64,000 nucleotides of DNA, from positions 288,001-352,000 of the forward strand of contig CAWIIP010000004.1 in assembly GCA_963836235.1 (NCBI GenBank), given 5' to 3'. Below, one piece after another: positions 68-12,270 of this stretch. Origin of the DNA: an uncultured Pseudomonadota bacterium (GTDB lineage: Bacteria > Oederibacteriota > Muellerivitia > Muellerivitales > Muellerivitaceae). The position numbers and the translations under genes are program-made. The notes beneath the pieces are model-generated. The model worked only from the letters and a program-made list of their open reading frames with translations. It was not told where the DNA came from and made no database searches. Each line of letters starts with the position of its first letter. The stretch's first letter is position 1.

Positions 68-774
68 CCGCTATGACCCCGAGTTTATTTTTTGTGAATG
101 TCGATATCCGCGCTGGTCTCCGCGCCGTCGGTAACGGTTACTTTTTGATCAACGGACACCAGTTTGCCGTTGCAAGCCTTTAAGGTGTAATCGCCCGCGG
201 GTACGCCCTTGATCGAGTAACTGGCGTATTGTTTCTTTTCCTCGTTATTGGTGACGAGGGAAGCTGTGGTGAAATAGGGGCTGTCCACGACTATCACGTA
301 AGCGCCCATCTCGGGGTGGAGGGTACAAAGAAGGGGGGCGGTGCCAACCGTGTCGAACTTATAGCTTTTCACCACTCCGTTGCCCCATTGGCCCAAGTCG
401 AAGGAACAGCAGGCGGCGGGGGAGGAGACGTTGTGGTTGACCGCGTCCTCGTTAAGGAAGTCGACCGTCGTGCCCTTTTGAACGGCCAAAATGTGGGGAA
501 CGAAATTGAGTTTGACTTGGTTCATTTTGGCGTGCTCCGTGGGAGCCGTAAAATCGCTCTTGGCAACCGGCACCAGGTACACCACCACGTCCTTGTCGCT
601 CTTGGGGCCGGTGGTTTCCACATAGGCCTTTTTCACGTGAATGGTTCCGCTGATCGTTCCGCCACCCGCCGCGAAGGCGAAGGAAGCCACGAAGAGGGCC
701 AGGGCCCCGCCGATGACCGCCTCACCCACTAAAACCCGGAGTGCTTGTTTTTTTCCGCCTTGAAATATTTTCTT

Positions 775-1829
775 GCCGAATTCACGGAGTAAGTGCAACA
801 CTTCGCCGGAAGACTTCCGCCGGAGTTTGAAAGCCCAAACATTTTTTGGGCCTGTTATTAAGCCATCTTTCAATGGCTTTGAGCTCTTTGAGAGACACTT
901 TAGCAAGGTCGGTCTTTTTAGGCAAATGGCGGCGGACAAGACCGATAGTATTTTCCACTGTGCCTTTTTCCCAACTGTGGAAAGGAACGCAGAAAAAGGA
1001 TTTTGTACCAAGCACATGGTTGGTTTCCAGGTGGTTGGTGTTTTCGGTTCCGTTGTCGTAGGTCAGGCTCAAACGAGCCTCTTGAGGAAAGCGGCATAAA
1101 GAGCGGTTGAGGCTGTGACTCATGTGGGAAGCGGTTTTTCGTTTCAGCTTTCCCAATTTGGAAAAACGGCTTTGACGCTCGACAAGTGCCCGGAGAGCAA
1201 CTTTACTTTGACGAGAAACCATCGTGTCCGTTTCCCAGTGGCCGAACTGCTTGCGTTGGTTGACGACCTTGGGCCTTTTGTCGATGGAAACTCGGCCTGG
1301 GATATGGTTTTTGGCGTGCCTGTGGCTGTGACCGAAGGTGAGCCGCCGCCGGTGGTGACGGACGAGGCAAGGAATCAGATCAGTGGCCTCAGCGTAAATC
1401 CACTGGTAGATGGCTTCGGGGCCAATGGTTTGCTTAGGCCGCAGGTGGCCTAAACGGCCTGAAATGAGTTCGGGAGACCAGACTCGTTTCAATTGGCGAC
1501 GGACGTAGGCACGAATTCGTTTTGTTTTCAGGCGTAAACGACAAGCCCGTTGTTGGTTGCGGGTCACATACCGTTGATGGGCCCGATGGGACAGATAGTA
1601 ACCCGAACGGATGGGGGGAGCGTTGCGCTTGAGTTCCCTGGAGAGGGTGGAAGGAGACCTCTTCAAGGCACGGGAAATGGCCCGAAGGCTGAGGCCCTTT
1701 CCCTTCAAGACGGATAAATGATCTCTTTCCTCAACACTTAAATGCTTGTAGTTCTTTTTCATGGCCGCATATCCTATTGATGCGGCCTTCTTCAGGCACT
1801 AAGTGTTGCACTTACTTATGGAACTCGGG
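775..1829 (-). mobile_element. IS30-family insertion sequence (1055 bp)
   Basis: Imperfect ~29-bp terminal IRs sharing AGTAAGTGCAACACTT (775-803 / 1801-1829); 3-bp CTT target duplication at 772-774 and 1830-1832; one transposase gene. Confidence 0.95.
782..1762 (-). CDS. IS30-family transposase
   Basis: N-terminal HTH (LSLRAISRALKRSPSTLSRELKRN); DDE motifs HWETDT, TYDNGTE, EKGTVEN. Confidence 0.95.
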   Translation of the reverse strand: MKKNYKHLSVEERDHLSVLKGKGLSLRAISRALKRSPSTLSRELKRNAPPIRSGYYLSHRAHQRYVTRNQQRACRLRLKTKRIRAYVRRQLKRVWSPELISGRLGHLRPKQTIGPEAIYQWIYAEATDLIPCLVRHHRRRLTFGHSHRHAKNHIPGRVSIDKRPKVVNQRKQFGHWETDTMVSRQSKVALRALVERQSRFSKLGKLKRKTASHMSHSLNRSLCRFPQEARLSLTYDNGTENTNHLETNHVLGTKSFFCVPFHSWEKGTVENTIGLVRRHLPKKTDLAKVSLKELKAIERWLNNRPKKCLGFQTPAEVFRRSVALTP

Positions 1830-2177: not shown

Positions 2178-2684
2178 CTAAATTCCTTGGTTATTTCGCC
2201 AAGATTCGGTCCTGGCTTCCGGCATCTTCTTATAAATATTGTTCAAGTGGGTTTTCAGTGTGGCCCTGGTAATGGACAGCTTGCGGACGATCTTGGAGTT
2301 TGTAAATCCTCGAATGCAAAGATTGGCGATTTCCAACTCTCTTTTGCTTAAATCCCTGTCCTTGAATCGTTGGAGCCAAGCGTCGTATTTCTTTTGCAAA
2401 GGATACAACATCACCATGCGGTAGGGAGCCGCGCTGAAAAAGAAGACGTCGAAAAATTGGTTTCCCACCTTTTGGTTGGAGAAGGAGCGGATACCCTCCT
2501 CTCCGATAGGCCGATTTAGGTTTTTTTCGCAGGATAAGACGCAGGTTTGAGGGCACTCCATTCCCGAAAAATTCCCGCAAAGTTTCTTGCAGGCCGAGTT
2601 TTGGAAATGAACATGATTTCCCATCCTCAAGAGGCAAATACTGGTGCGGTTCTTTCCTAAGGCTTCACTAAACCATGAGATCAT
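2178..2684 (-). CDS. LuxR-type HTH regulator with Cys-rich N-terminal domain
   Basis: C-terminal LSKRELEIANL...GFTNSKI...TLKTHLNNIYKK; N-terminal CxxxC...CxxxCxxxC. Confidence 0.85.
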   Translation of the reverse strand: MISWFSEALGKNRTSICLLRMGNHVHFQNSACKKLCGNFSGMECPQTCVLSCEKNLNRPIGEEGIRSFSNQKVGNQFFDVFFFSAAPYRMVMLYPLQKKYDAWLQRFKDRDLSKRELEIANLCIRGFTNSKIVRKLSITRATLKTHLNNIYKKMPEARTESWRNNQGI

Positions 2685-3572: not shown

Positions 3573-5203
3573 TCATTTCCCTTGTTGGTAAAGGTAGTTG
3601 GCCAAATCCTGAATCTGGGCTGGGGTTAATTGGTCTGAATAACCCTGCATGGCGGCGTCGGGGTTCAACTTGACCGGATCCTTGATATAGGCTGCTATAT
3701 AATCGGAATCTCGGACTCCGGCTATGTGGGTCAAATCGGGGCCTATTTCCTCGCCGACTCCATGGAATTTATGGCAGGTGGCGCAATTTTCCTCATAAAG
3801 TTTAGGGGCTGCGGCTGTGAAAGAACCGCCTCCCAGGCTGCTCATGTAAGCTACTAAGGCTTCCACTTCGCCGTCCAAAAGGTTGAAATTAGGCATCTTG
3901 GTGTTGGGTGTGATTTTCTTAGGGTTTCGGAAATGGTTGGCAAGCCAGTCCCGATTGCGGCGCACACCCACGTCATCCAAAACCGGACCCACGGTTCCAC
4001 CGTGGCCGTGCAGGGTATGGCAATATTCACAGTGAAGTTCCACGAAAAGCCGCTTTCCTTCCATGACCATGGGATCTTTTTCCCCTACCGGGTTGGTCAG
4101 GGGCGTTCGGGCGCCTTGAACGGTTAGGAATATCAGGCCTAGGACGGAAGTCCAACCGGCGGCCACCAGCCATTTGCGGTCGGCCGGATGGCGTTTGGGC
4201 CCCTTATCCAAAAAGGGAAGGGCGAATAAAGCGGAAACAACGATCAAGGGCAAAAGGACGATGGCGAAAGCCTCCAACTTGCCGGGAAAGTATTTCAGTA
4301 ACTGAAATACTGAAAGGAAATACCACTCGGGCCGGGGGTTGTAGGTCGTATCGGTGGGATTGGCTAAGTCCTCCAACTCCGCGCCTTTCCAAAGGGCGAC
4401 TCCCAGCACAATGAGAAAGACCAAGGTTACGGCCACTGTATCCTTGAAGATGATATAGGGCCAAAAGCTTTTGCCCTGCGCCTTGAGGTCCAGGTAACGG
4501 GCATTAAGCCGGGCCTTCCAATTGGGGTCTTTCGAGTCGGGCAAAGAAGCGCTGCGATCGGGGGGGCGGAGATGCCGTGCCAAACCACAAGAAACAAGTG
4601 GATGGCCATGAAAAGGACGGTCAGGACGGGGAAAACCAGCACGTGAATGGCGTAAAAACGGGCCAAGGTGATGGCGCCCAAATCCTGCCCGCCTTTCATG
4701 ACCCTGGAAAGAGCATCTCCGATGTAAGGAACTTGTTCCACCATGTGGGCCCCGACGGTGGTGGCCCAATAGGCTTTCTGGTCCCAAGGAAGAAGGTAAC
4801 CGGTGAATCCGAAACCGATCACGAAGAAAAAGAGCAGGATGCCGGAAAGCCAGGTGACTTCCCGCGGGTACTTATAGGCGCCCATGAAGAAAACCCGCAA
4901 AAGATGGAGGAACACCGAAACCACCATGCCGGTGGCGCCCCATTTATGGAGGCCCCTCAGCAATTTGCCCATGGGTACTTCGGAGGAAATGTATTTCACC
5001 GAGTCATAAGCGTGTTCAGGCGAGGGGGAATAATGCATAGCCAAAAGGATGCCGGTGACCACTTGAAGGAGAAAAAAGAAAAGGGTGACGCTTCCCAAGG
5101 TGTAACGCCAATCCACCCCCTTGGGGATGTGGCGGTCCAGGATGACTTCCTTCAGCTTTCTCCATCCGGTTCGTTCGTCGAGCCAATCCAGTATTGGTTT
5201 CAT
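3573..5203 (-). CDS. Fused cytochrome b - subunit IV - diheme cytochrome c of a Rieske/cyt b complex; 1-nt frameshift at 4560-4566
   Basis: Heme b His pairs (RGLHKWG..LHLLR; YAIH-x14-HLF), PEWY, two CxxCH (CEYCH, CATCH). The ORFs 4427-5203 and 3573-4787 join in frame if the C7 run is C8. Confidence 0.85.
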
Positions 5204-5706
5204 TAGGCGGTTACCTCCGGCAGGACATAAATCACCCCGCCTTCCACTTTCACCGGGAAACGGTTCAGGGGTTTGGGAGGAGGTCCGGAAATAACTTTGC
5301 CATCCTTGGCAAAGGTTCCGCCGTGGCAGGGGCAAAGGAAAGCTTGTTTGGTGGCGTCCCACCGATAGGGACATCCCAAGTGGGTACAGTGGGGATCATA
5401 GGCCACCCATTCCCCTTTTTGGAGGATGACCCATACCGAACTGGGGCTTTCAATGACTTCCCAGCCGTCCTTCTTTCGTTTGACGTAATCCAACTTGATC
5501 GGCTCGCCTTCCCTGACGCTGCTGACCGGGCCCACTTCAACCCAATCTTCCTTTTTTGCCCGCCAAGCGGGTGACAGGAAATATAAAAGGCCAGACCCAC
5601 CCAAAATAAAGCTGATGAAACTACCCATGGCCGTGATGAGAATGATGAGGAACGTCCGGCGTTGTGGATTTTCAGGCTCGCTTTGGGTTTTATTTTCTGG
5701 GCACAT
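5203..5706 (-). CDS. Rieske [2Fe-2S] subunit, low-potential type
   Basis: Tat motif RRTFL, TM helix, CTHLGC and CPCHGG(TF); stop overlaps the cytochrome b ATG (TAATG). Confidence 0.93.
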   Translation of the reverse strand: MCPENKTQSEPENPQRRTFLIILITAMGSFISFILGGSGLLYFLSPAWRAKKEDWVEVGPVSSVREGEPIKLDYVKRKKDGWEVIESPSSVWVILQKGEWVAYDPHCTHLGCPYRWDATKQAFLCPCHGGTFAKDGKVISGPPPKPLNRFPVKVEGGVIYVLPEVTA

Positions 5707-5826
5707 TCAAAACTCCTTGTGACGTTTTTCGAATTTTAAAGCGGCTGACGGATGATAAAGGCGAGGAGGTTCCCATAACCCCGGATTCCAAGATGGCCCC
5801 AAAAGGGGAATGGAAATTACCCAGGT

Positions 5827-6231
5827 TCATTTCGAGGCCGTGGATTGTAACGACTCCAGGTACTTAACGGCGGTTTTAATTTCCTCGTCCGTCAATTTGC
5901 CCTTGAATTTCGGCATTTTATTTTTGCCGTTAGTGACGGTCTTTACTTTGTCATCGGTTGTGAGTGTGACCGCGGCGGCCCGGGTGAGATCCACATTCAC
6001 GGGATCCACTTTAAGAACCTTGGCCATCTTGACGTTACCTTTGGCATCCTTGCCGTGACATTGGGCGCATTTGGCCTCAAAGAGCTTTTGTCCCGGTTGA
6101 GGCATGGCTTCCGCCGCGAAGGCGAAGGAGGCCAGAAATAGGGCCAAAGCCCCGCCAATGACGGCCTCACCCACCAAAACCCGAAGGCTTGGCTTATTTT
6201 CCTTTAAAGATGCTTTTTTGCTGATCCTCAT
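5827..6231 (-). CDS. Periplasmic monoheme cytochrome c (copy B)
   Basis: AAGGAG RBS before ATG 6231, signal peptide ending AFA, CAQCH, distal Met in KMPKF. Confidence 0.9.
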   Translation of the reverse strand: MRISKKASLKENKPSLRVLVGEAVIGGALALFLASFAFAAEAMPQPGQKLFEAKCAQCHGKDAKGNVKMAKVLKVDPVNVDLTRAAAVTLTTDDKVKTVTNGKNKMPKFKGKLTDEEIKTAVKYLESLQSTASK

Positions 6232-6294
6232 GGAAGTCTCCTTATTTCGATTGAACTCGTCCCCGGAAAGATATCTTTTAGGCCTCTTTTCCCG

Positions 6295-6310
6295 TATGAC
6301 GGCCGTCATA
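6295..6310. promoter_or_regulatory. Crp/Fnr-type box, class II position
   Basis: Perfect palindrome TATGACGGCCGTCATA; minus-strand -10 TATCTT at 6273-6268. Confidence 0.8.
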
Positions 6311-6344
6311 TAAGTTGTTCTTTCAAACAACCGCATTCCTTAGG

Positions 6345-6359
6345 GCAAGCGGCATGCCA
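6345..6359 (-). promoter_or_regulatory. Sigma-54 promoter of the cytochrome c B - Rieske - cytochrome b unit
   Basis: TGGCATGCCGCTTGC, identical to 1985-1999. Confidence 0.8.
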
Positions 6360-6413
6360 TTGGAAAAGCCTCTCAAAAAGCGGGTTTTCGAAACCATCGA
6401 ATTGGATAAGGCG

Positions 6414-6450
6414 GGAGTTATGGCATAGGCGCCATAGCAGCGCCGCAATA
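6414..6450. promoter_or_regulatory. Putative enhancer TATGGC-N6-GCCATA
   Basis: GGAGTTATGGC-ataggc-GCCATAGC-N6-GCAATA. Confidence 0.75.
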
Positions 6451-6477
6451 GGGGGAAAGGGGATTAAAAGTTGAAAA

Positions 6478-6513
6478 ATAAAAAAGGGGCCAGTTTTGGG
6501 CTAGCCCCTTTTC
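6478..6513 (-). terminator. Rho-independent terminator after cytochrome c A
   Basis: AAAAGGGGC...GCCCCTTTT stem followed by a U-tract on the minus strand. Confidence 0.65.
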
Positions 6514-6541
6514 AAAACTTAAGGAGAGAGGTGATGAGTTC

Positions 6542-6919
6542 TTATTTTGAGCCTGCGGCGTTAGCTTGCAAAGATTCCAGATACTTGACGGCGGTTTGAA
6601 TCTCATCATCCGTCAATTTGCCCTTGAACTTCGGCATCTTCTTGTTTCCGTTGGTGACCGTTTTAATTTTATCCGCCGTGGAGAGCGTGACCGCCGCCGC
6701 CCGGGTCAGGTCCACATTGACCGGGTCGACCTTGAGGACCTTGGCCATCTTGACGTTCCCCTTGGCGTCCTTGCCATGGCATTGGGCGCATTTGGACTCA
6801 AAAAGTTTTTGGCCCGGCGACAAGGCGTCGCCATCGGCCAAGGCGAAGGCGGTTACGAAGCAAAAGAGCGATAAAAAAATTCCCAAAAAGCCAACAATCT
6901 CTCTGACATGTCGTTTCAT
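6542..6919 (-). CDS. Periplasmic monoheme cytochrome c (copy A)
   Basis: GGAGG RBS, Sec signal, CAQCH, KMPKF. Confidence 0.9.
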   Translation of the reverse strand: MKRHVREIVGFLGIFLSLFCFVTAFALADGDALSPGQKLFESKCAQCHGKDAKGNVKMAKVLKVDPVNVDLTRAAAVTLSTADKIKTVTNGNKKMPKFKGKLTDDEIQTAVKYLESLQANAAGSK

Positions 6920-6984
6920 TTAATCCTCCGAAATTCAATAAATTTAGGGGCCGCTTTTGGAGCGGCCCTTTTCTCGCGCAATTC

Positions 6985-8241
6985 TTAAAAGAATACAGCC
7001 AAAGAATCTGAAAGGGCGTAGACATTGTTGTAACCAATGACTCCCTGATCCGTCCTGGTTAATTTAAACGTCGGGTTCATGTAAACCTGTTCCACGAAGG
7101 GGGTCAGGGCACCCAGGGTAAATACCTGCGTGTCCGTGTATTGCACGTTGAGATTGGAGGAGGTGTAGTCATAACGGAATACCAAAGGCGTTATTTCATC
7201 CATCTCGTAATCCAACTCCCCGAAGAAACCGCCGGTGGTCGGCCCGACGGGCCCAACAGTGCCTGTGCCCGAGAATATTCCCGTATTCGTCTGGCCCAGC
7301 TCGCCGCCTACCTTGATATCCAGGTTCTTGACGATGGGGGAACTCGCGAATAAGGCCGTGTTGTAGTATTCCTGGCCCACGATGTTGCCCGTCGCGCCTG
7401 GTACCACACCGGCGTTATAGCCATTATAGAAAGTGGCATTTACCGCCAACCCGTCGTCCCCGATAAATTGGTTGACGAAAAGCTGGATGTCCTTTGAGTT
7501 GTTGCTGTCGGAAGTGGGGGCCGCGAGGCTGGAGGTGGTGACGGCTTTTCCGTTGGACGTGTTGATCAAACCGGTGTCCTGGGCATTTTGAATCCCATCG
7601 TAAAAACCCAGGGTGACCCGGGTGTCCTGGTGGGTATATCCCAATTCCAATCCGGTGCCGGTGGGTTTCACGGCGGAAGCGATGCTTGCGTTTCCGATAG
7701 GGCCCCGGTCCGATCCCCCGAAACCGTCGGCGCTGAATTTACCGAGCCTTACGGTAAAGAACTCGTTTTCATTGCCGGTAACATATCCCATTTTCTGGCT
7801 GGACAAGCTGGGAACCGATCCCGGGAAGATACCGGTGCCGTTCCCTAAGCCCAATTCGCTATACGAGAAAAAGTTTTTACTTATCCCCCCGCCAATGAAA
7901 ATACTTCCACTCCCTAAGGTGAAACTTCCGTTGTCCGGAACGGCCGTTTTATTCGCGTCGGTCGTGGTAGTGGCGCTTGCGCCGGCGCTATACCGCGCCG
8001 CGATATATTTGGTAATCTCGAATTTCCCGTCGTTCATGTCCTTTCCGATGTCGCTGGGAATCCGGTATCCAGCCGCGCGGAAATTGTATCCGAACTTGTT
8101 CAACTGGCCGTAACCCGGGTCGTGGCATGTCGAGCAATTGTAACTATACATCCTGGCGAACATCGGAACGGCTTGTGCGACTGGCGAGAAGCACAGGAAC
8201 AAACCGATTCCCAAAAAAATCATCAAGGCCGACTTTTTCAT
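6985..8241 (-). CDS. Cyc2-like fused monoheme cytochrome c - outer membrane beta-barrel
   Basis: After the signal peptide: AVPMFARMY-x3-CSTCH-...QLNKFGYNFRAAGY, matching the AxPxFAR...CxxCH...xL..FG..F...GY signature; beta-rich body; C-terminal Phe. Confidence 0.8.
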   Translation of the reverse strand: MKKSALMIFLGIGLFLCFSPVAQAVPMFARMYSYNCSTCHDPGYGQLNKFGYNFRAAGYRIPSDIGKDMNDGKFEITKYIAARYSAGASATTTTDANKTAVPDNGSFTLGSGSIFIGGGISKNFFSYSELGLGNGTGIFPGSVPSLSSQKMGYVTGNENEFFTVRLGKFSADGFGGSDRGPIGNASIASAVKPTGTGLELGYTHQDTRVTLGFYDGIQNAQDTGLINTSNGKAVTTSSLAAPTSDSNNSKDIQLFVNQFIGDDGLAVNATFYNGYNAGVVPGATGNIVGQEYYNTALFASSPIVKNLDIKVGGELGQTNTGIFSGTGTVGPVGPTTGGFFGELDYEMDEITPLVFRYDYTSSNLNVQYTDTQVFTLGALTPFVEQVYMNPTFKLTRTDQGVIGYNNVYALSDSLAVFF

Positions 8242-8350: not shown

Positions 8351-9412
8351 TTATTTATTGGAAGAAGGTGTTGGCCGGGAGGTGGTAGCTTCTTTCCACA
8401 ATTGGAACAGGGTGCTCACCAAGCTTTTTCGAACCGCCAGGGGGTAGGGATTGCCAGGTGGCAATTGGCGCATCAGCCTGCGATGGGCCGCGCCGAGATG
8501 GTGGTAGGGCATGCCGGGAAAGAGGTGGTGGGTGGCGTGGAAGCGAAGGCCTACCGGGGCCCAAAGAGGCGTGGTGAGGCGGTTGCCAGGGATGTCGATG
8601 GAATCGAGGAATTGCTCCGAAAAGCTCATTTCATGGTTGGGCGGATTACGGTAGCAATGGGCCACCAGGGTGCGCAGGCCATTGGTGAAGAGGATGAAGA
8701 CCGCCGCCAGGTACCAAAGCGCCAGAACCTTCCAAGACAGGATTCCCAAGGCCATCAAGGTCATTCCCATGGCGGCATAGGCGAAGGTCATGAATTCCTG
8801 GGCCCACCAAATGTGTTTTTCCCTTTCGTCCGGCAGGGGGCGCTTAAAGCCCACCCCAACCGCCAATGACGAAGCCAGTTCCCAGAGGGGTTTCCTTAAA
8901 GGCTGGATACCGTAGGACAAGGGGGTCGCGACCAGAAACCGGATGAGGAACACCGCCGGGGCCAGAATCATCGTCAGCAAAAAGATCAATATCCGGTAAG
9001 GCTTTTCTAGGGCAAAGTCAAAATACTCGTGGTCGTCCTTGGTACCGTAAAGCCTCTGTTTGTGGTGGTCGATATGGACCCCCATGTAAAGCATGGAGGG
9101 AACCATGAGGGGAAAGCCACAGAGCAGGTTCCAAACCACGTGAAATGTCTGGAATGTTCCTTTTTTGAGGTGGGTCAGCTCGTGCACGAAGATGACCGCC
9201 CGGTAGAGGGCGAAACCAGCCACTAAAAAGGCCCCCCGTTGAATCAGAGAAAAATTGACGGACTTTACCGATATGACAAAAGCGGCCCATCCCAAAGCGA
9301 CGCTGAATAAAAAATCCACCCAATAAATCCAGGGGTTGGGGTTGAAAAGATCCTGGGTGATCCGCTTGGCTTCGGCCATAGGAAATTCAATAGAAGAGGT
9401 TTTTAGAACCAT
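8351..9412 (-). CDS. Membrane fatty acid desaturase-family di-iron enzyme
   Basis: His boxes HELTH, HIDHH, HATHH plus TM helices. Confidence 0.9.
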   Translation of the reverse strand: MVLKTSSIEFPMAEAKRITQDLFNPNPWIYWVDFLFSVALGWAAFVISVKSVNFSLIQRGAFLVAGFALYRAVIFVHELTHLKKGTFQTFHVVWNLLCGFPLMVPSMLYMGVHIDHHKQRLYGTKDDHEYFDFALEKPYRILIFLLTMILAPAVFLIRFLVATPLSYGIQPLRKPLWELASSLAVGVGFKRPLPDEREKHIWWAQEFMTFAYAAMGMTLMALGILSWKVLALWYLAAVFILFTNGLRTLVAHCYRNPPNHEMSFSEQFLDSIDIPGNRLTTPLWAPVGLRFHATHHLFPGMPYHHLGAAHRRLMRQLPPGNPYPLAVRKSLVSTLFQLWKEATTSRPTPSSNK

Positions 9413-9460
9413 GAGCCCTCCTAGGAGGGCTCACTCTAAAAGAAGGGTTCTCCTTCCCAC

Positions 9461-9531
9461 TATGATTCGGCTCACAAAACCCGCTATTTCCAGGCTTTCT
9501 TTGTCGTGAGCCTTCTATGAGCTGGATCATA
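9461..9531. promoter_or_regulatory. Two Crp/Fnr-type boxes serving divergent promoters
   Basis: TATGA-ttcggc-TCACA (9461-9476; minus -10 TAGAGT) and TATGA-gctgga-TCATA (9516-9531; plus -10 TATACT at 9553-9558). Confidence 0.8.
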
Positions 9532-9590
9532 TTGGGCCCGAGAGGCTCTTTTTATACTAATCAAACTTCCCGTCCTATTAAGGAGATTTT

Positions 9591-9890
9591 ATGGAATCGA
9601 AATCAACACCGATCAATCACGGCACGATTTTTTCATTGCTGGTGATATTTGTATTTTCTTCGGTAGGTTTGAGCCTTCTCCACCTTTCACCACTTTTGAA
9701 TAATCTGGGCATATTTGGAATCGCTACGATCATGGCCGGATTGGTGGTGTTTCAATATATGGGGTTGAGCTTAGAGGGGCCGCTCGTGGTGTGGCTTGTC
9801 ATCATTCCCTCGGTCCTCTTCGTCATTTTGGTATTTCTCCTGATGCCCGATATTGCCCATGTGCGGGTGGATTTCATCCGGAAGATTTGA
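9591..9890 (+). CDS. Cytochrome c oxidase subunit IV-like 3-TM protein (divergent)
   Basis: AAGGAG RBS; 3 TM segments; IATIMAGLVVFQYMGL...E...MPD resembles the CtaF pattern IA..KA.LV..FMHL..E. Confidence 0.6.
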   Translation: MESKSTPINHGTIFSLLVIFVFSSVGLSLLHLSPLLNNLGIFGIATIMAGLVVFQYMGLSLEGPLVVWLVIIPSVLFVILVFLLMPDIAHVRVDFIRKI

Positions 9891-9891
9891 G

Positions 9892-10059
9892 ATGAAGCCG
9901 GGGTGGGTTGGCCTTCTTGCCATACTTTCAGCAATTATCTTTCCCTTCACCACGGAGTTTCCGAGGCCAGCCTTTCTCCTTTCCCTTTTCGTTCTTTTTG
10001 CGCTCTTGGGTCTAAGGTGGCTGGGCCGTCTAATGAAACCTGTTTTCCCGCCCCTCTAA
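9892..10059 (+). CDS. Small 2-TM hypothetical protein (55 aa)
   Basis: ATG 1 nt after the upstream stop; hydrophobic; fills the operon gap. Confidence 0.55.
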   Translation: MKPGWVGLLAILSAIIFPFTTEFPRPAFLLSLFVLFALLGLRWLGRLMKPVFPPL

Positions 10060-10091
10060 GCGGGCTTTTCAAAAAAATAAAAGGAGACGGA

Positions 10092-10913
10092 ATGCCGACC
10101 ATCGAGAAAAACAAGAATTATGAAATCACGGATAAATCCGAAGGGTTGGACAAGCCCAGCGCCAAAACCTGGGACGGACTTTCGCGGATGGCTTTCGCCG
10201 CCAATTGGGACCCTGAAACGGCCGTCAATTGGAACCTGCCCATCGAGTTGGGAAACGTTAGGGAAGGCTGGATCAATATTCTCCATTACTTTTACGAGGG
10301 AGAATGGCAGGGGCTGGAAATCATCCAGCGGCTCATGAACAAGGCGGCGCATTTGTTTAATAAACCTGAAATGGTGACTTATTATTCAACCCAATGCGCT
10401 GATGAGGCGAAACACTTGCTGGTATTCCGGAAATATCTCCACAAATTGAACTCGCCGCCCGCCAAGCAAAAGGTTTTCGACATACTGGTTTGGCTGGCCA
10501 CCAGCGGACCTATGCCGGTGGAACGATGGATATTGGGAACCTATTTCACCGAGACCATGGCAGGGGCTATTTTCCAGAAGACCCTCGAACTTCCCGCCAT
10601 TGACCCCACAGGCAAAGAGATGATCCGGCTCCAGCTCAAGGACGAATCCCGGCATATCGCGGGCACCAAGCTGGGAGTCCAGACCCTGATGGACCATTGT
10701 GGACCTTTCAAGACCTGGATTTTAAAGGTCTGGTGGAAATTATTCGTGAAATTGGCGGTTAAGGAAATCCGCGCCCTGAAACCCTATGGGGATCAGGTAG
10801 GAATGGACCCGGAATATATCCTCCACAAATGCTTTTCCAAAATGGCCGAAATGAAGGAATTTGACCAAAAGTTCCTTTGCTTTTCCCAGGCTCAATCATT
10901 TTTGAGGAATTAA
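10092..10913 (+). CDS. Ferritin-like di-iron protein (AurF / aldehyde-deformylating oxygenase-like fold)
   Basis: AAGGAG RBS; ligand pattern EGE...DEAKH...TE...DESRH. Confidence 0.8.
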   Translation: MPTIEKNKNYEITDKSEGLDKPSAKTWDGLSRMAFAANWDPETAVNWNLPIELGNVREGWINILHYFYEGEWQGLEIIQRLMNKAAHLFNKPEMVTYYSTQCADEAKHLLVFRKYLHKLNSPPAKQKVFDILVWLATSGPMPVERWILGTYFTETMAGAIFQKTLELPAIDPTGKEMIRLQLKDESRHIAGTKLGVQTLMDHCGPFKTWILKVWWKLFVKLAVKEIRALKPYGDQVGMDPEYILHKCFSKMAEMKEFDQKFLCFSQAQSFLRN

Positions 10914-10932
10914 TTCCTTGGAGGCTGGTTCC

Positions 10933-12270
10933 TTGACAGAAGCTTTTTTCAAATTGACCAGCCAGATTACTCGTTGGTTTCCACGGAAGGGGGCAAAGGC
11001 TCTTGACCAAGTCCTTTTTCCTATTTTGGGAAACCAATGGCTGGTGGATTCTTTCCACAAGGCCAACCAAAGAAAATTGAAAAAGCTTTCCTCCTTCCAG
11101 CGCCTTCTCGTGATTTCGGATATCCATATTGGCGACTCGGTTTTGATCCAAACGGCGGTTTCGGCCCTGCGGGATTTTTTCCCAAATGCCCAAATCGACT
11201 ACATGGTCAAGAAGTCCGCGGCGTGCCTCCTGGAAGGGCACCCGGATGTCTCAGAACTGTGGCCTGTTTTCACGGGAGACAGGTTGCCCAATGAATCGGA
11301 TATTCGAAATATCCAAGAGCTGTCGGTGGAATATGACGCGGTTTTCAACTTTTGTCCCTTTATCAAGCCGGAATCCTTCTCTGAGAGATGGAAGACCTTT
11401 CATTTCATGACTTACGTGGCGGATTTTGCCCGAAACGAATGGAAAGGAACGGGGATAAACCATATTTCCTATCAATCCCATAAGTTTATTTACGATTTGT
11501 TTCATCCTCTTTTTTCGATTCAAAGGGCCAGGCCTTTTGAGGGGCCGGGATTATTTCTTTCCCCGGAAGCCATCCATGAAGCCCATGGCTTCATCGAAGG
11601 TACAATGGGGGAAGAAAAGGAAAAAATTGTTTTCCTGAATCCTGAAACGGCGTCCGCCTTTACCCAAATTCCCTTTGCCACCCAATCGGAGCTTCTGAAT
11701 GGCTTGGTGGAGATGCCCTGCCGGATTCTCGTTGGCGAGGGGAGGGTGGATAAGGAATTGGCCGAACGATTGCGGTTGACCGTCCCGATTTGGAAAAGGG
11801 ACCGGATAACCCTAGCCCCCGCCAGCATGTCCTTGGACACTTATGCGGCCCTTATTGATTGGAGCGATATTTTTGTTTCAGGGGACACGGGCCCCTTGCA
11901 TATGGCGGCGGCTTGGAAAAGGGACCGAAGTGCGCGTCATTCTTTTCGAAACGTGACCTCGGTCCTTAGCGTTTTTGGGGCGACCCCACCCCGTCTGTCC
12001 GGCTACGATTCTTTCCGATGGGACTTCCTGGAAGCGGAACAAAAATCCTGGTCCCACGCCTATCAATTTGAAAGTTCCTGCCGAAACATCACTTGTATGC
12101 ACAAAATGGCGAAAGTTTGTGACGCCAAAGGGTGTTTTCAATCACTGAAGATGGATAAAATCCTTTTCGACATCAAAGATATCCTTCGGGGACCCACTCT
12201 TACGTCCCCGGGAATTGAAAGGGATTCTCCTTGCTTCCCAAAGAACATGGCGCCTGGAATGCGCTTTTAG
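10933..12270 (+). CDS. Glycosyltransferase family 9 (heptosyltransferase-like)
   Basis: HIGDSVL...ALRDFFPNAQID and DTGPLHMAAA motifs; TTG start after GGAGG. Confidence 0.85.
   Translation: MTEAFFKLTSQITRWFPRKGAKALDQVLFPILGNQWLVDSFHKANQRKLKKLSSFQRLLVISDIHIGDSVLIQTAVSALRDFFPNAQIDYMVKKSAACLLEGHPDVSELWPVFTGDRLPNESDIRNIQELSVEYDAVFNFCPFIKPESFSERWKTFHFMTYVADFARNEWKGTGINHISYQSHKFIYDLFHPLFSIQRARPFEGPGLFLSPEAIHEAHGFIEGTMGEEKEKIVFLNPETASAFTQIPFATQSELLNGLVEMPCRILVGEGRVDKELAERLRLTVPIWKRDRITLAPASMSLDTYAALIDWSDIFVSGDTGPLHMAAAWKRDRSARHSFRNVTSVLSVFGATPPRLSGYDSFRWDFLEAEQKSWSHAYQFESSCRNITCMHKMAKVCDAKGCFQSLKMDKILFDIKDILRGPTLTSPGIERDSPCFPKNMAPGMRF

Follow-up and report, generated by a model that had tools for sequence, protein, structure and literature searches.

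Do the five genes between positions 3573 and 8241 of the window (the whole 64,000-nucleotide stretch analysed) encode one electron path between menaquinone and the outside of the cell, and in which direction would electrons travel along it? The preliminary description had read them as an extracellular electron transfer chain around a Cyc2-like porin-cytochrome and had left the direction open; the sequence comparisons described here support such a reading.

The five genes and their surroundings

All five genes were found at the positions first given for them, co-oriented on the minus strand. The features of the locus and its neighbourhood are as follows.

6985 to 8241, minus strand: Cyc2-family fused cytochrome-porin of the FARMY clade, 418 aa (motif, predicted fold, hhalign)
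6542 to 6919, minus strand: monohaem class I cytochrome c A (Pfam, CXXCH)
5827 to 6234, minus strand: monohaem class I cytochrome c B, tandem paralogue of A (Pfam, nucleotide identity)
5203 to 5706, minus strand: Rieske [2Fe-2S] subunit (Pfam Rieske E=1e-14, boxes)
3573 to 5206, minus strand: cytochrome b with a C-terminal dihaem cytochrome c, fused in one gene (Pfam, NCBIfam)
6414 to 6456, no strand assigned: 43-nt element with an internal palindrome, 5' of cytochrome c B and repeated at 2054 to 2096
2178 to 2684, minus strand: LuxR/GerE-type regulator with a Cys-rich N-terminal part (Pfam GerE E=4.7e-11)
788 to 1816, minus strand: IS30-family insertion sequence in the copper-protein gene, with 16-bp terminal inverted repeats
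85 to 787, minus strand: body of a type-1 copper protein, a cupredoxin plus a CarboxypepD_reg-like domain (Pfam Copper-bind E=7.5e-5)

Both small cytochromes c match the Pfam family Cytochrome_CBB3 (A, E=1.8e-14; B, E=6.8e-15), and A also matches Cytochrom_C (E=2.8e-10). Cytochrome c A has a signal-like stretch at its N terminus and CAQCH at residue 44, cytochrome c B starts with the ATG at 6234, and the two genes are 81% identical across 261 nt. The Rieske protein carries the twin-arginine motif RRTFL and the boxes CTHLGC and CPCHGGTF, and matches the NCBIfam b6f and bc1 Rieske models with scores below cutoff. High-potential Rieske proteins as a rule have Ser and Tyr in this box; both are absent from the window protein and present in the genome's other, housekeeping Rieske (CPCHGSGY), which agrees with the menaquinone-type box proposed earlier and suggests a low-potential chain. 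The link to menaquinone also gains from two MqnA/MqnD-family genes for menaquinone synthesis in the genome.

The cytochrome b is composed of a b6-like N-terminal part and a subunit-IV-like part, has PEWY, and matches Cytochrome_B (E=1.8e-51), Cytochrom_B_C (E=1.6e-10) and two cytochrome c domains, the dihaem part showing CEYCH and CATCH. Second among the NCBIfam matches of the cytochrome b comes ExtP, on which the N-terminal part scores 232.6 bits (cutoff 290); the c domain has an ExtS match with E=9.4e-10 whose score is under the curated cutoff of 100. In helices B and D, 13 and 14 residues separate the histidines that bind haem, as in the b6c-type complexes of Firmicutes and heliobacteria, which likewise join a subunit-IV-like part to a cytochrome c and use menaquinol as substrate. 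The window protein differs from these complexes in having cytochrome b6 and subunit IV in one polypeptide and a dihaem c part, and in lacking the haem ci Cys, where the YTLG string reads as first reported, like the CPCHGGTF box.

In the assembly, the reading frame of the cytochrome b gene is interrupted at a C7 run (4560-4566), giving two frames that overlap. Run X2 contains a 176-nt contig, with a depth of only 2.4, that spans 4453-4627 and is identical except for one extra base at the C7 run, and four of five relatives read through (L004 to L007, with ...HGISAPPER... uninterrupted in a single ORF of about 544 aa), the fifth, L003, having its own, different frame break. The split is thus a one-base assembly artefact, and cytochrome b is one gene. 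Both halves are 86-90% identical to intact relatives, and other stops are absent. The coxB gene of the genome, likewise a respiratory gene, has a break in a homopolymer of its own (G6A4), indicating assembly error.

A terminator-like hairpin (6481..6513, minus strand), with a stem of 13 bp and a T run after it, lies directly 3' of cytochrome c A. Since the terminator scan overall is not enriched (10 sites against 9.3 expected), the hairpin is at most suggestive of attenuation or of two separate transcription units. The sequence scan resolved no promoter for the five-gene locus.

The copper protein that had been noticed nearby is confirmed by its Copper-bind match. Its gene (85-1017, with a legible CTLHPEM site) is interrupted by the IS30-family element, which severs the start codon (1846-1844) from the body 27 nt past the ATG. 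The transposase ORF (782-1762) has HTH_38 and rve domains, and the inverted repeats lie at 788-803 and 1801-1816. The shared promoter architecture suggested for this gene has a counterpart in four collinear blocks common to its leader and that of cytochrome c B: the 43-nt element (repeat D3), whose copy at 2054-2096 5' of the copper-protein gene is 77% identical, is collinear with three more shared blocks. Homologues of the copper protein adjoin the Cyc2/bc loci L017, L026, L085, L086, and L088. The LuxR/GerE-type regulator, a homologue of which (39% identical) follows the operon in locus L019, could possibly control the module. The interrupted copper-protein gene, the artefactual split of cytochrome b, and the accessory nature of the bc complex are additions to the preliminary description.

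The outer-membrane porin-cytochrome

The Cyc2-like protein yields no match in Pfam and NCBIfam searches; its database copy (P0001) begins six codons later (412 aa). Its single CXXCH, at residue 36, belongs to the N-terminal motif AVPMFARMY-SYN-CSTCH, so that the PxFAR...CXXCH motif is present in variant form (FARMY), and hhalign against the genome's own canonical Cyc2 gives a probability of 96.6% over 48 N-terminal columns. The AF2 model (pLDDT 73.7, pTM 0.73) has strands in residues 80-417, which are predicted to fold into a porin-like barrel akin to those of OprP and OprO, with about 16 strands. The Foldseek matches are PorB, Omp38, OprP (2o4v, rank 4), and OprO (4rjw, rank 6), with E values of about 1e-10, and the barrel that the preliminary description had proposed to look for is therefore predicted, in the form of the 16-strand porins.

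The available text of PMC8406198 describes Cyc2 as a protein of >365 aa with a signal-like start, a CXXCH near the N terminus after PxFAR, and, at the C terminus, an OprP/OprO-like barrel with about 16 strands, and with a motif that its authors call unique to Cyc2. The window protein shares this architecture with Cyc2PV-1 of Mariprofundus, Cyc2 of Acidithiobacillus ferrooxidans, and Cyt572 of Leptospirillum, but its motif shows two departures from the published consensus. Met stands where [Q/K] is expected, as in ten of ten close metagenome loci, and a one-residue insertion is followed by G-Q-L in place of PXL. The published screen, as given there, demanded PXFAR[Q/K][T/Y] (PMC8406198) and may therefore have kept the FARMY clade from entering the published Cyc2 tree. 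Unlike those cyc2 genes, the window gene shares its operon with Rieske/cytochrome b and not with cyc1/cox genes, and in contrast to their hosts, no RuBisCO or ACS gene was detected in the window host.

Conservation of the gene order and an accessory bc complex

The gene order is kept in all five loci on genome contigs (genome_contigs) that are long enough to judge and in five of the six decidable close metagenome loci, and this recurrence indicates that the arrangement is more than chance. In one close locus (L018), the Cyc2-like and cytochrome c genes are found with the Rieske gene absent within 3.4 kb.

Among 31 genomes of the bacterial family f1 (candidate phylum FCPU426), 18 have a bc complex of the window type. 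A Cyc2-type gene lies directly upstream of it in 14 of these 18, being of the FARMY type in nine and of a different, canonical Cyc2 clade in five more, while no adjacent Cyc2 was detected in the other four; the conserved neighbourhood anticipated in the preliminary description is thus found. Of 20 decidable loci with more distant Cyc2 relatives (26-32% identity), 6 have a Rieske protein together with a cytochrome b:c fusion next to the Cyc2 gene, the pairing occurring at five places on the tree. A second bc complex is present in 21 of the 31 genomes, 83-100% identical between genomes, and COX1 in 29. The window bc is the accessory complex of the two. In the same-genus genome G054, the flanks are retained and the operon is absent.

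Direction of electron flow and its partner

The host, a soil bacterium of a little-known phylum, is probably an organoheterotroph. RuBisCO, CdhC, and NiFe hydrogenase were not found in the 99.4%-complete genome; in the search for ATP-citrate lyase, the control gave no match anywhere. A CuA-type cytochrome c oxidase (A-type, with a CuA subunit II) is encoded on another contig, and the 25-kb stretch in which the five genes lie encodes, besides the type-1 copper protein, CuA-type cupredoxins and another Cyc2 of the canonical kind.

We consider it quite probable that the five genes form one menaquinone-to-Cyc2 path, whichever its direction. Our tentative preference, held with somewhat less than even confidence, is for an accessory outward branch. 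Menaquinol would be oxidised by the Rieske/cytochrome b complex with its own dihaem cytochrome c, at which energy would be conserved, and the electrons would travel through the pair of small periplasmic cytochromes c to the single haem of the outer-membrane porin-cytochrome, and from there to Fe(III) in soluble or complexed form or to a different dissolved oxidant, iron being the most likely partner. This direction is favoured by the linkage of Cyc2 to the bc complex and not to an oxidase, by CPCHGGTF against the housekeeping CPCHGSGY together with the menaquinone genes, and by the missing RuBisCO, CdhC, and NiFe hydrogenase, without which reverse electron flow would serve no purpose that we can see. 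Published precedents, as far as the available texts go, are the A. ferrooxidans model from bc1 through c4, rusticyanin, and Cyc2 to Fe(III) (PMC7735108) and the Geobacter cluster of a porin with Rieske/cytochrome b (PMC5877670).

The A. ferrooxidans rus and petI/petII operons have the same cast of Cyc2, small cytochromes c, type-1 copper protein, and bc complex, with one of two bc complexes devoted to the iron branch as at the window locus, and both flow directions have been proposed in the texts available (PMC13741234, PMC7735108, PMC10654088). There, however, cyc2 lies in the rus operon with oxidase genes and bc1 in separate pet operons (PMC10654088), whereas Cyc2 and bc are adjacent in the window; the quinone is ubiquinone and not menaquinone, c1 is separate where the window cytochrome b has b6-type histidine spacing and a fused dihaem c, and the window host, unlike A. 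ferrooxidans, is probably organoheterotrophic. The extHIJKLMNOPQS genes of Geobacter sulfurreducens likewise cluster a phosphate-porin-like protein (ExtI) with c-type cytochromes, the Rieske protein ExtO, cytochrome b ExtP, and the cytochrome c lipoprotein ExtS (PMC5877670). The accessible text describes ExtI as porin-like and mentions no haem motif. The cytochromes there are multihaem (4 to 12 haems) and the function of the cluster itself is unsettled, whereas the window porin itself has one haem, its carriers are monohaem, and the ExtP/ExtS scores are below the family cutoffs. In Gallionellaceae of culture KS, Cytc1-Cytc2-Cytbc by mtoAB comprises two small periplasmic cytochromes c and a cytochrome b-dihaem c fusion adjoining an outer-membrane conduit, as here, and is proposed to link the conduit to quinone; its cytochrome b, according to the part available, is of b561 type without a Rieske partner, and the conduit is the decahaem MtoA/MtoB, not Cyc2 (PMC5566968).

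Flow in the opposite direction is rather unlikely. In its favour, every Cyc2 tested biochemically is described as an Fe(II) oxidase in the texts available (PMC8406198; PMC13647500), and in vitro Fe(III) reduction by a Cyc2 was not found in the literature covered by our search. Here the Cyc2-like protein would oxidise dissolved Fe(II) and pass electrons via the small cytochromes c to the aa3-type cytochrome c oxidase or, when reductant is needed, through a reversed bc complex to menaquinone, as in the A. ferrooxidans rus/petI model. Electrons drawn from Fe(II) could reach the genome's CuA-type oxidase through these cytochromes c, the copper protein, cupredoxins, and canonical Cyc2 are close by, and models in a review, as far as its text is available, place Cyc2, periplasmic c, and bc1 in the uphill branch (PMC13741234). 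Uphill flow has no evident need in this genome, though, and downhill Fe(II) oxidation would do without the bc complex to which Cyc2 is tied in 14 of 18 genomes; the oxidase is on another contig, and the Rieske signature suggests a low-potential chain. A path ending in a soluble partner other than iron (humic quinones, for example, Mn(III) complexes, or the oxyanions selenite and tellurite proposed for Geobacter ext), outside the cell or in the periplasm, is improbable. The ExtP and ExtS matches point that way, as do the clustering of ExtI with Rieske and cytochrome b and its link to selenite and tellurite reduction (PMC5877670) and the remark of Keffer et al. that Cyc2 may have additional functions (PMC8406198). 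Both matches are under their cutoffs, however, the outer-membrane protein carries the motif termed unique to Cyc2, and ExtI is described without one for haem.

Slightly less probable still is that bc and cytochromes c are a second aerobic complex III and the Cyc2-like gene is separate, for example a porin or sensor. The four genomes without an adjacent Cyc2, the hairpin that stands between the first two genes (Cyc2-like and cytochrome c A) and the other three, and the promoter scan would fit this, but two unrelated Cyc2 clades take up one and the same position upstream of this bc, distant lineages show the pairing again, and the second bc complex, close to universal in the family, is better suited to a housekeeping role. 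That the module is decaying in this strain, with the frameshift and the IS30 insertion as real lesions, is very improbable: the operon is absent from the close relative G054 and the copper-protein gene is split, but the restoring base is found in the independent, shallow X2 contig, coxB points to assembly error, and both cytochrome b halves remain close to intact relatives. If the outward branch is real, the module would be an anaerobic outlet for a heterotrophic soil bacterium short of oxygen.

The operon and its Cyc2-like protein

The five co-oriented genes noted in the preliminary description are real, as judged from their open reading frames, the Pfam and NCBIfam matches of four of them and their conserved order, and lie in the window at G000:C4:288001-352000, within a host genome of 3.97 Mb (5 contigs, 99.4% complete).

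Genes of the operon, in transcription order
6985-8241, minus strand, Cyc2-like ORF: 418 aa, first in transcription order, without a match in Pfam or NCBIfam
6542-6919, minus strand, cytochrome c A: CAQCH, class I cytochrome c (Pfam, NCBIfam)
5827-6234, minus strand, cytochrome c B: CAQCH, class I cytochrome c (Pfam, NCBIfam)
5203-5706, minus strand, Rieske protein: 167 aa (Pfam, NCBIfam)
3573-5206, minus strand, cytochrome b:dihaem c: cytochrome b N part, subunit IV-like C part and two cytochrome c domains, in two overlapping frames

The genes for cytochromes c A and B are a tandem duplication, with 81% identity across 261 nt. A scan for sigma-70-like promoters gave 0 sites against 3.8 expected, and terminator-like sites showed no enrichment in the same scan. 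Upstream of the operon (8351-10913) lie a membrane fatty-acid desaturase and an AurF-like di-iron oxygenase, the latter on the opposite strand, both from families of oxygen-dependent enzymes. A LuxR/GerE regulator (2178-2684) carries several cysteines in its N-terminal half (CKKLC...C...CVLSC), possible ligands of a metal or an Fe-S cluster; its homologue is found downstream of the operon in the related locus L019, while the related locus L004 has a NarX/NarL-like two-component pair upstream of the operon instead.

The criteria for Cyc2, as given in the part of the source available (PMC8406198), are a signal peptide, one CXXCH, AXPXFAR[Q/K][T/Y] upstream of it and PXL four residues downstream, a length of at least 365 aa, and a 16-stranded porin when modelled on OprO/OprP (PDB ID 4RJW, 2O4V). 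The N-terminal region of the window protein reads ...AQAVPMFARMYSYNCSTCHDPGYGQLNKFG..., where MKKSALMIFLGIGLFLCFSPVAQA stands before the motif (by eye) and the AF2 model places a helix at residues 2-17. The single CXXCH is CSTCH, at residue 36 of 418, and C36, C39 and H40 are invariant in the alignment of 36 homologues. The upstream motif, A-V-P-M-F-A-R-M-Y, fits the published pattern except for a Met at [Q/K], which counts as one mismatch if the pattern is applied strictly; the PxFAR core is retained, P26, F28 and R30 are invariant, and distant members carry FAR[K/R]. The PXL motif is missing, the window reading H-D-P-G-Y-G-Q-L with Pro replaced by Gly and a one-residue insertion compared with the distant H-T-S-P-P-R-L, and the L47 of the PXL position is invariant. 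The length is 418 aa, or 412 aa from an alternative start.

The AF2 model, built on the 36-homologue alignment (pLDDT 73.7, pTM 0.73), begins with a short helical part and continues in strands between residues 80 and 417 (DSSP), which count as 16 when three pairs of short adjacent segments are merged. The predicted fold is a barrel, as the preliminary description called for, and the Foldseek search against the PDB agrees, with 16-strand porins matching at E values of about 1e-10, among them OprP (PDB ID 2o4v, rank 4, E=1.5e-10) and OprO (PDB ID 4rjw, rank 6, E=5.2e-10). By sequence, no relative with a solved structure was found, the sole match being a HORMA protein at chance level (E=0.18). 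The alignment of the window family profile with the canonical Cyc2 protein P0055 by hhalign reached 96.6% probability over only 48 N-terminal columns, and phmmer connects the window protein to the FAR[K/R]-type proteins. The nearest ESM Atlas clusters are unnamed or have a generic automatic name, with Nitrospirota and Acidobacteriota as the commonest phyla, which is a lead only; one of them has Porin_O_P on 20% of its members.

The clade of the window protein, which we call FARMY after its motif, is small: of 585 phmmer matches among 1.84 billion cluster representatives, 4 reach E<=1e-30. A tree of 71 Cyc2-type sequences places its 14 rows together, fully supported and on a long stem. We read the window protein as a divergent Cyc2 family member. 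Since the published screen required FAR[Q/K][T/Y], it may have removed the FARMY clade from the published Cyc2 tree.

The Rieske/cytochrome b complex and the break in cytochrome b

Both Rieske boxes, CxHxGC and CxCH, are present (CTHLGC...CPCHGGTF; Pfam Rieske, E=1e-14). The cytochrome b (Pfam Cytochrome_B, E=1.8e-51) has the Qo-site PEWY, and its histidine pairs in helices B and D, read from the sequence, have 13 and 14 residues between them. The C-terminal 150 aa include CEYCH and CATCH in two Pfam Cytochrom_C stretches. The N-terminal Cys of cytochrome b6 that binds haem ci is absent from the window and four relatives, where the site that we take to correspond to it reads RYTLGS, with Thr.

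The genome has two bc complexes, the second being located on contig C2 (C2:1047367-1053225, that is L012:1367-7225) and composed of an unusually long Rieske protein of 343 aa, a split cytochrome b (276 and 364 aa) and a 944-aa cytochrome c with 8 CXXCH. This second complex looks like the housekeeping one, because 21 of the 31 genomes of the family share its cytochrome b at 83-100% identity and 29 of them have COX1. The bc complex of the window is accessory, occurring in 18 of the 31 genomes at 59-88% identity. Its Rieske box is CPCHGG[V/T/I]F in 10 of 11 loci and CPCHNGVF in the related locus L006, compared with CPCHGSGY in the housekeeping protein; Ser and Tyr are known from mutant studies of the bc1 complex to raise the potential of the Rieske cluster.

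The two cytochrome b frames meet where the gene's strand has seven consecutive C (4560-4566), and the two pieces join exactly at SAPP|DRS. Four relatives have a single ORF of about 544 aa that reads ...VVWHGISAPPER... unbroken at the junction, and a fifth, L003, has its own frame break at another place. Three DNA runs, with contigs from one study, partially cover the window; a 176-nt contig from run X2 spans 4453-4627 and has one extra base in the C run, being otherwise identical, and with its depth of only 2.4 it gives modest backing for an intact cytochrome b. In the same assembly, coxB is likewise broken at a homopolymer, G6A4. Because the relatives read through, X2 has the extra base and coxB has a homopolymer break of its own, we conclude that the cytochrome b and dihaem cytochrome c parts are one gene and that the split is an artefact. 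A programmed frameshift or a natural split into cytochrome b6 and subunit IV was also considered and is ruled out by the single ORF in four of the five relatives together with the extra base in the X2 contig.

This coxB, which encodes the CuA subunit II of the A-type oxidase (G000:C2:1861780-1862465 in the host genome G000, that is L010:4780-5465), stands in two frames, split at its G6A4 run. As a second case besides cytochrome b, it suggests that homopolymer errors occur throughout the assembly, and other apparent pseudogenes of this genome therefore need careful reading.

Pairing of Cyc2-type genes with bc complexes

The preliminary description had treated the five genes as a unit, and the neighbourhood is indeed conserved. 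In all five genome_contigs loci with enough sequence, one of them named candidate division FCPU426, a Cyc2-like gene, one to three cytochromes c, Rieske and cytochrome b:c2 follow in the same order; a sixth locus, of 1.7 kb, is too short for judgement. All 10 close metagenome loci are of the FARMY type, with Rieske/cytochrome b downstream in 5, while 4 are too short and one, L018, has the Cyc2-like gene and two cytochromes c without a Rieske gene within 3.4 kb.

We surveyed 99 genomes of the phylum, 31 of them from the family of the host, f1. A FARMY-type protein (E<=1e-80) is found in 9 of the 99, every one in f1, and orthologues of the cytochrome b:c2 (E<=1e-130) in 18 of the 31 f1 genomes, including all 9 with FARMY. 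Five of the other nine (G067, G053, G052, G050 and G049) have a canonical, P0055-type Cyc2, 40-49% identical, directly upstream of the bc genes, usually with a cytochrome c before it; in the remaining four no Cyc2 was found. A Cyc2-type gene thus adjoins the accessory bc complex in 14 of 18 copies, from two different Cyc2 clades. Of the four genomes without a Cyc2 there, G071 (L096:1139-3641) and G051 (L099:4694-7244) have this slot filled by a multihaem c7/c3-like cytochrome, a 4Fe-4S dicluster protein and an NrfD-like membrane protein.

The pairing extends to distant Cyc2 relatives (26-32% identity, FAR[K/R] motif), where Rieske and a cytochrome b carrying one fused cytochrome c are adjacent in 6 of 20 decidable loci, 5 of the 6 paired sequences being distinct. 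These pairings stand at five places on the tree, whose starred branches force at least six changes of state; the tree was made by a quick method and has one very long outgroup branch, leaving its deep branches uncertain. The operon can also be absent from its site: G054, from the same genus (80% complete, 77-79% nucleotide identity), keeps the flanking desaturase, the downstream genes and a stretch matching window 9597-12185, with only a stand-alone dihaem c at the operon site.

A further cluster with a Cyc2 gene lies next to the window.

Second iron-type cluster
G000:C4:283020-288000 (= L009:15020-19992), minus strand, just before window position 1

Its order is a CuA-like cupredoxin (177 aa), a rubrerythrin/ferritin-like protein, a NapH/MauN-like Fe-S membrane protein (506 aa), a CuA-cupredoxin:cytochrome c fusion (323 aa, with a weak cytochrome 579 match, E=2.7e-4) and the canonical Cyc2 P0055 (C4:283020-284420, 466 aa), with the textbook motif ALPSFARQT...CSACHTIFPEL. 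This cluster may be a second outer-membrane-to-quinone route. Among the related loci, L017 (6991-8403) and L026 (13301-14569) have two Cyc2-type genes in one cluster with a Cu/CarboxypepD_reg protein, parallel to the two-Cyc2 layout around the window.

Near the operon, an IS30-family element (788-1816) with 16-bp inverted repeats is found 27 nt past the ATG (1844-1846) of the type-1 Cu protein gene, so that the body of the gene (85-787) is detached from its start codon and its leader. That leader and the one of cytochrome c B are paralogous copies, with four collinear blocks in common.

Proposed direction of electron flow and possible meaning for iron metabolism

Two MqnA/MqnD-family genes in the genome indicate menaquinone synthesis by the futalosine route. 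Cytochrome bd, an A-type oxidase with COX3, COX4 and the CuA subunit II, and a qNOR-like enzyme are present. The search of the 99.4% complete genome found no RuBisCO, CdhC or NiFe hydrogenase; of carbon-fixation markers it covered RuBisCO and acetyl-CoA synthase, and neither turned up. The genome is poor in haem proteins, with only 2 ORFs that have at least three CXXCH and only 2 that have the Cyc2 motif. This kit is unlike that of a haem-rich Geobacter-type reducer.

The preliminary description had proposed a chain from Cyc2 to the quinone pool with its direction left open, and that interpretation is upheld; the analysis shows the parts, the fold, their linkage, the accessory status of this bc complex and the menaquinone genes, and from these we infer the electron path. 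Electrons would leave the menaquinone pool at the Rieske/cytochrome b, cross its dihaem c domain, reach cytochromes c A and B and then go through the Cyc2 haem to a dissolved partner outside. Cyc2, with one haem in a narrow barrel, is predicted to handle dissolved iron only, in the part of the source available (PMC8406198).

We favour outward flow tentatively, giving it somewhat less than an even chance. Downhill oxidation of Fe(II) to oxygen requires no bc complex, and the genes linked to Cyc2 here are those of a bc complex, not those of an oxidase. Reverse electron flow through bc is useful to autotrophs for NAD(P)H, and no sign of autotrophy was found with the markers searched, which likewise argues for the outward direction. 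The dedicated Rieske protein is without the two high-potential residues, suiting an acceptor weaker than oxygen. An outward route has also already been proposed from omics for A. ferrooxidans, running bc1 -> c4 -> rusticyanin -> Cyc2 -> Fe(III) in the consulted part of the report (PMC7735108).

Inward flow, meaning Fe(II) oxidation through Cyc2, keeps a smaller but appreciable chance in our estimate, because the assayed Cyc2 proteins are all reported as Fe(II) oxidases in the portions of the papers available (PMC8406198; PMC13647500), the genome has a cytochrome c oxidase, and the type-1 Cu protein and the CuA proteins lie close by, as in iron oxidisers. The missing carbon-fixation markers and the link of Cyc2 to bc instead of an oxidase speak against it. 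A more speculative reading, which we hold to be improbable, puts an iron gate on each of the two Cyc2 clades. The FARMY Cyc2 with the accessory low-potential bc would be a multihaem-free, energy-conserving menaquinol:Fe(III) outlet, and the canonical Cyc2, 8 kb away, would be an Fe(II) inlet with its CuA-type cupredoxins, cytochrome c fusion and NapH-like membrane protein, so that soil and peat heterotrophs of FCPU426 would use iron both ways as redox conditions swing. Returning to the pairing itself, a Cyc2-bc operon in a menaquinone-making host in which RuBisCO and acetyl-CoA synthase genes were not found is no less compatible with iron reduction than with iron oxidation.

The operon is composed of known kinds of parts in a new combination. 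The rus and pet operons of A. ferrooxidans have the same parts list; there, according to the part of the source seen (PMC10654088), cyc2 stands with oxidase genes and the bc1 genes are in separate operons, whereas in the window Cyc2 stands beside bc. The nearest precedents at the operon level are the Geobacter ext cluster, with the phosphate-porin-like ExtI, the Rieske protein ExtO, the cytochrome b ExtP and multihaem cytochromes (PMC5877670, in part), and culture KS, where an operon of two cytochromes c and Cytbc adjoins mtoAB (PMC5566968, in part). The curated cutoffs for Geobacter ExtP (NF040969) and ExtS (NF040971) were not reached, at 232.6 against 290 bits, the score of the window cytochrome b with the ExtP model, and 38.2 against 100 bits. 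Full-text literature searches, together with the available parts of PMC10654088, PMC13741234 and PMC5566968, gave no account of an operon that unites Cyc2 with Rieske/cytochrome b; supplements or figshare files of Cyc2 papers may hold such neighbourhoods.

Cyc2 genes are widely used as a marker of microbial iron oxidation, and what divergent homologues do in organisms without known iron oxidation is a question that the accessible text of PMC8406198 acknowledges as open. The gene order hints at the inner-membrane partner of Cyc2, a dedicated Rieske/cytochrome b, for two Cyc2 clades in one family and for distant soil lineages. If the two-gate reading were true, it could extend to other soil lineages that show the pairing, and Cyc2 would cease to mark iron oxidation exclusively. 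Should outward flow hold, gene surveys overcount the iron oxidisers of soil and peat and overlook multihaem-free iron reduction. For FCPU426, which in the literature searched on iron came up in taxon lists only and which is hardly represented in genome collections (eight nucleotide sequences in NCBI by a 2023 count, in the part of PMC10434106 available), the operon and its genome provide the first respiratory information.
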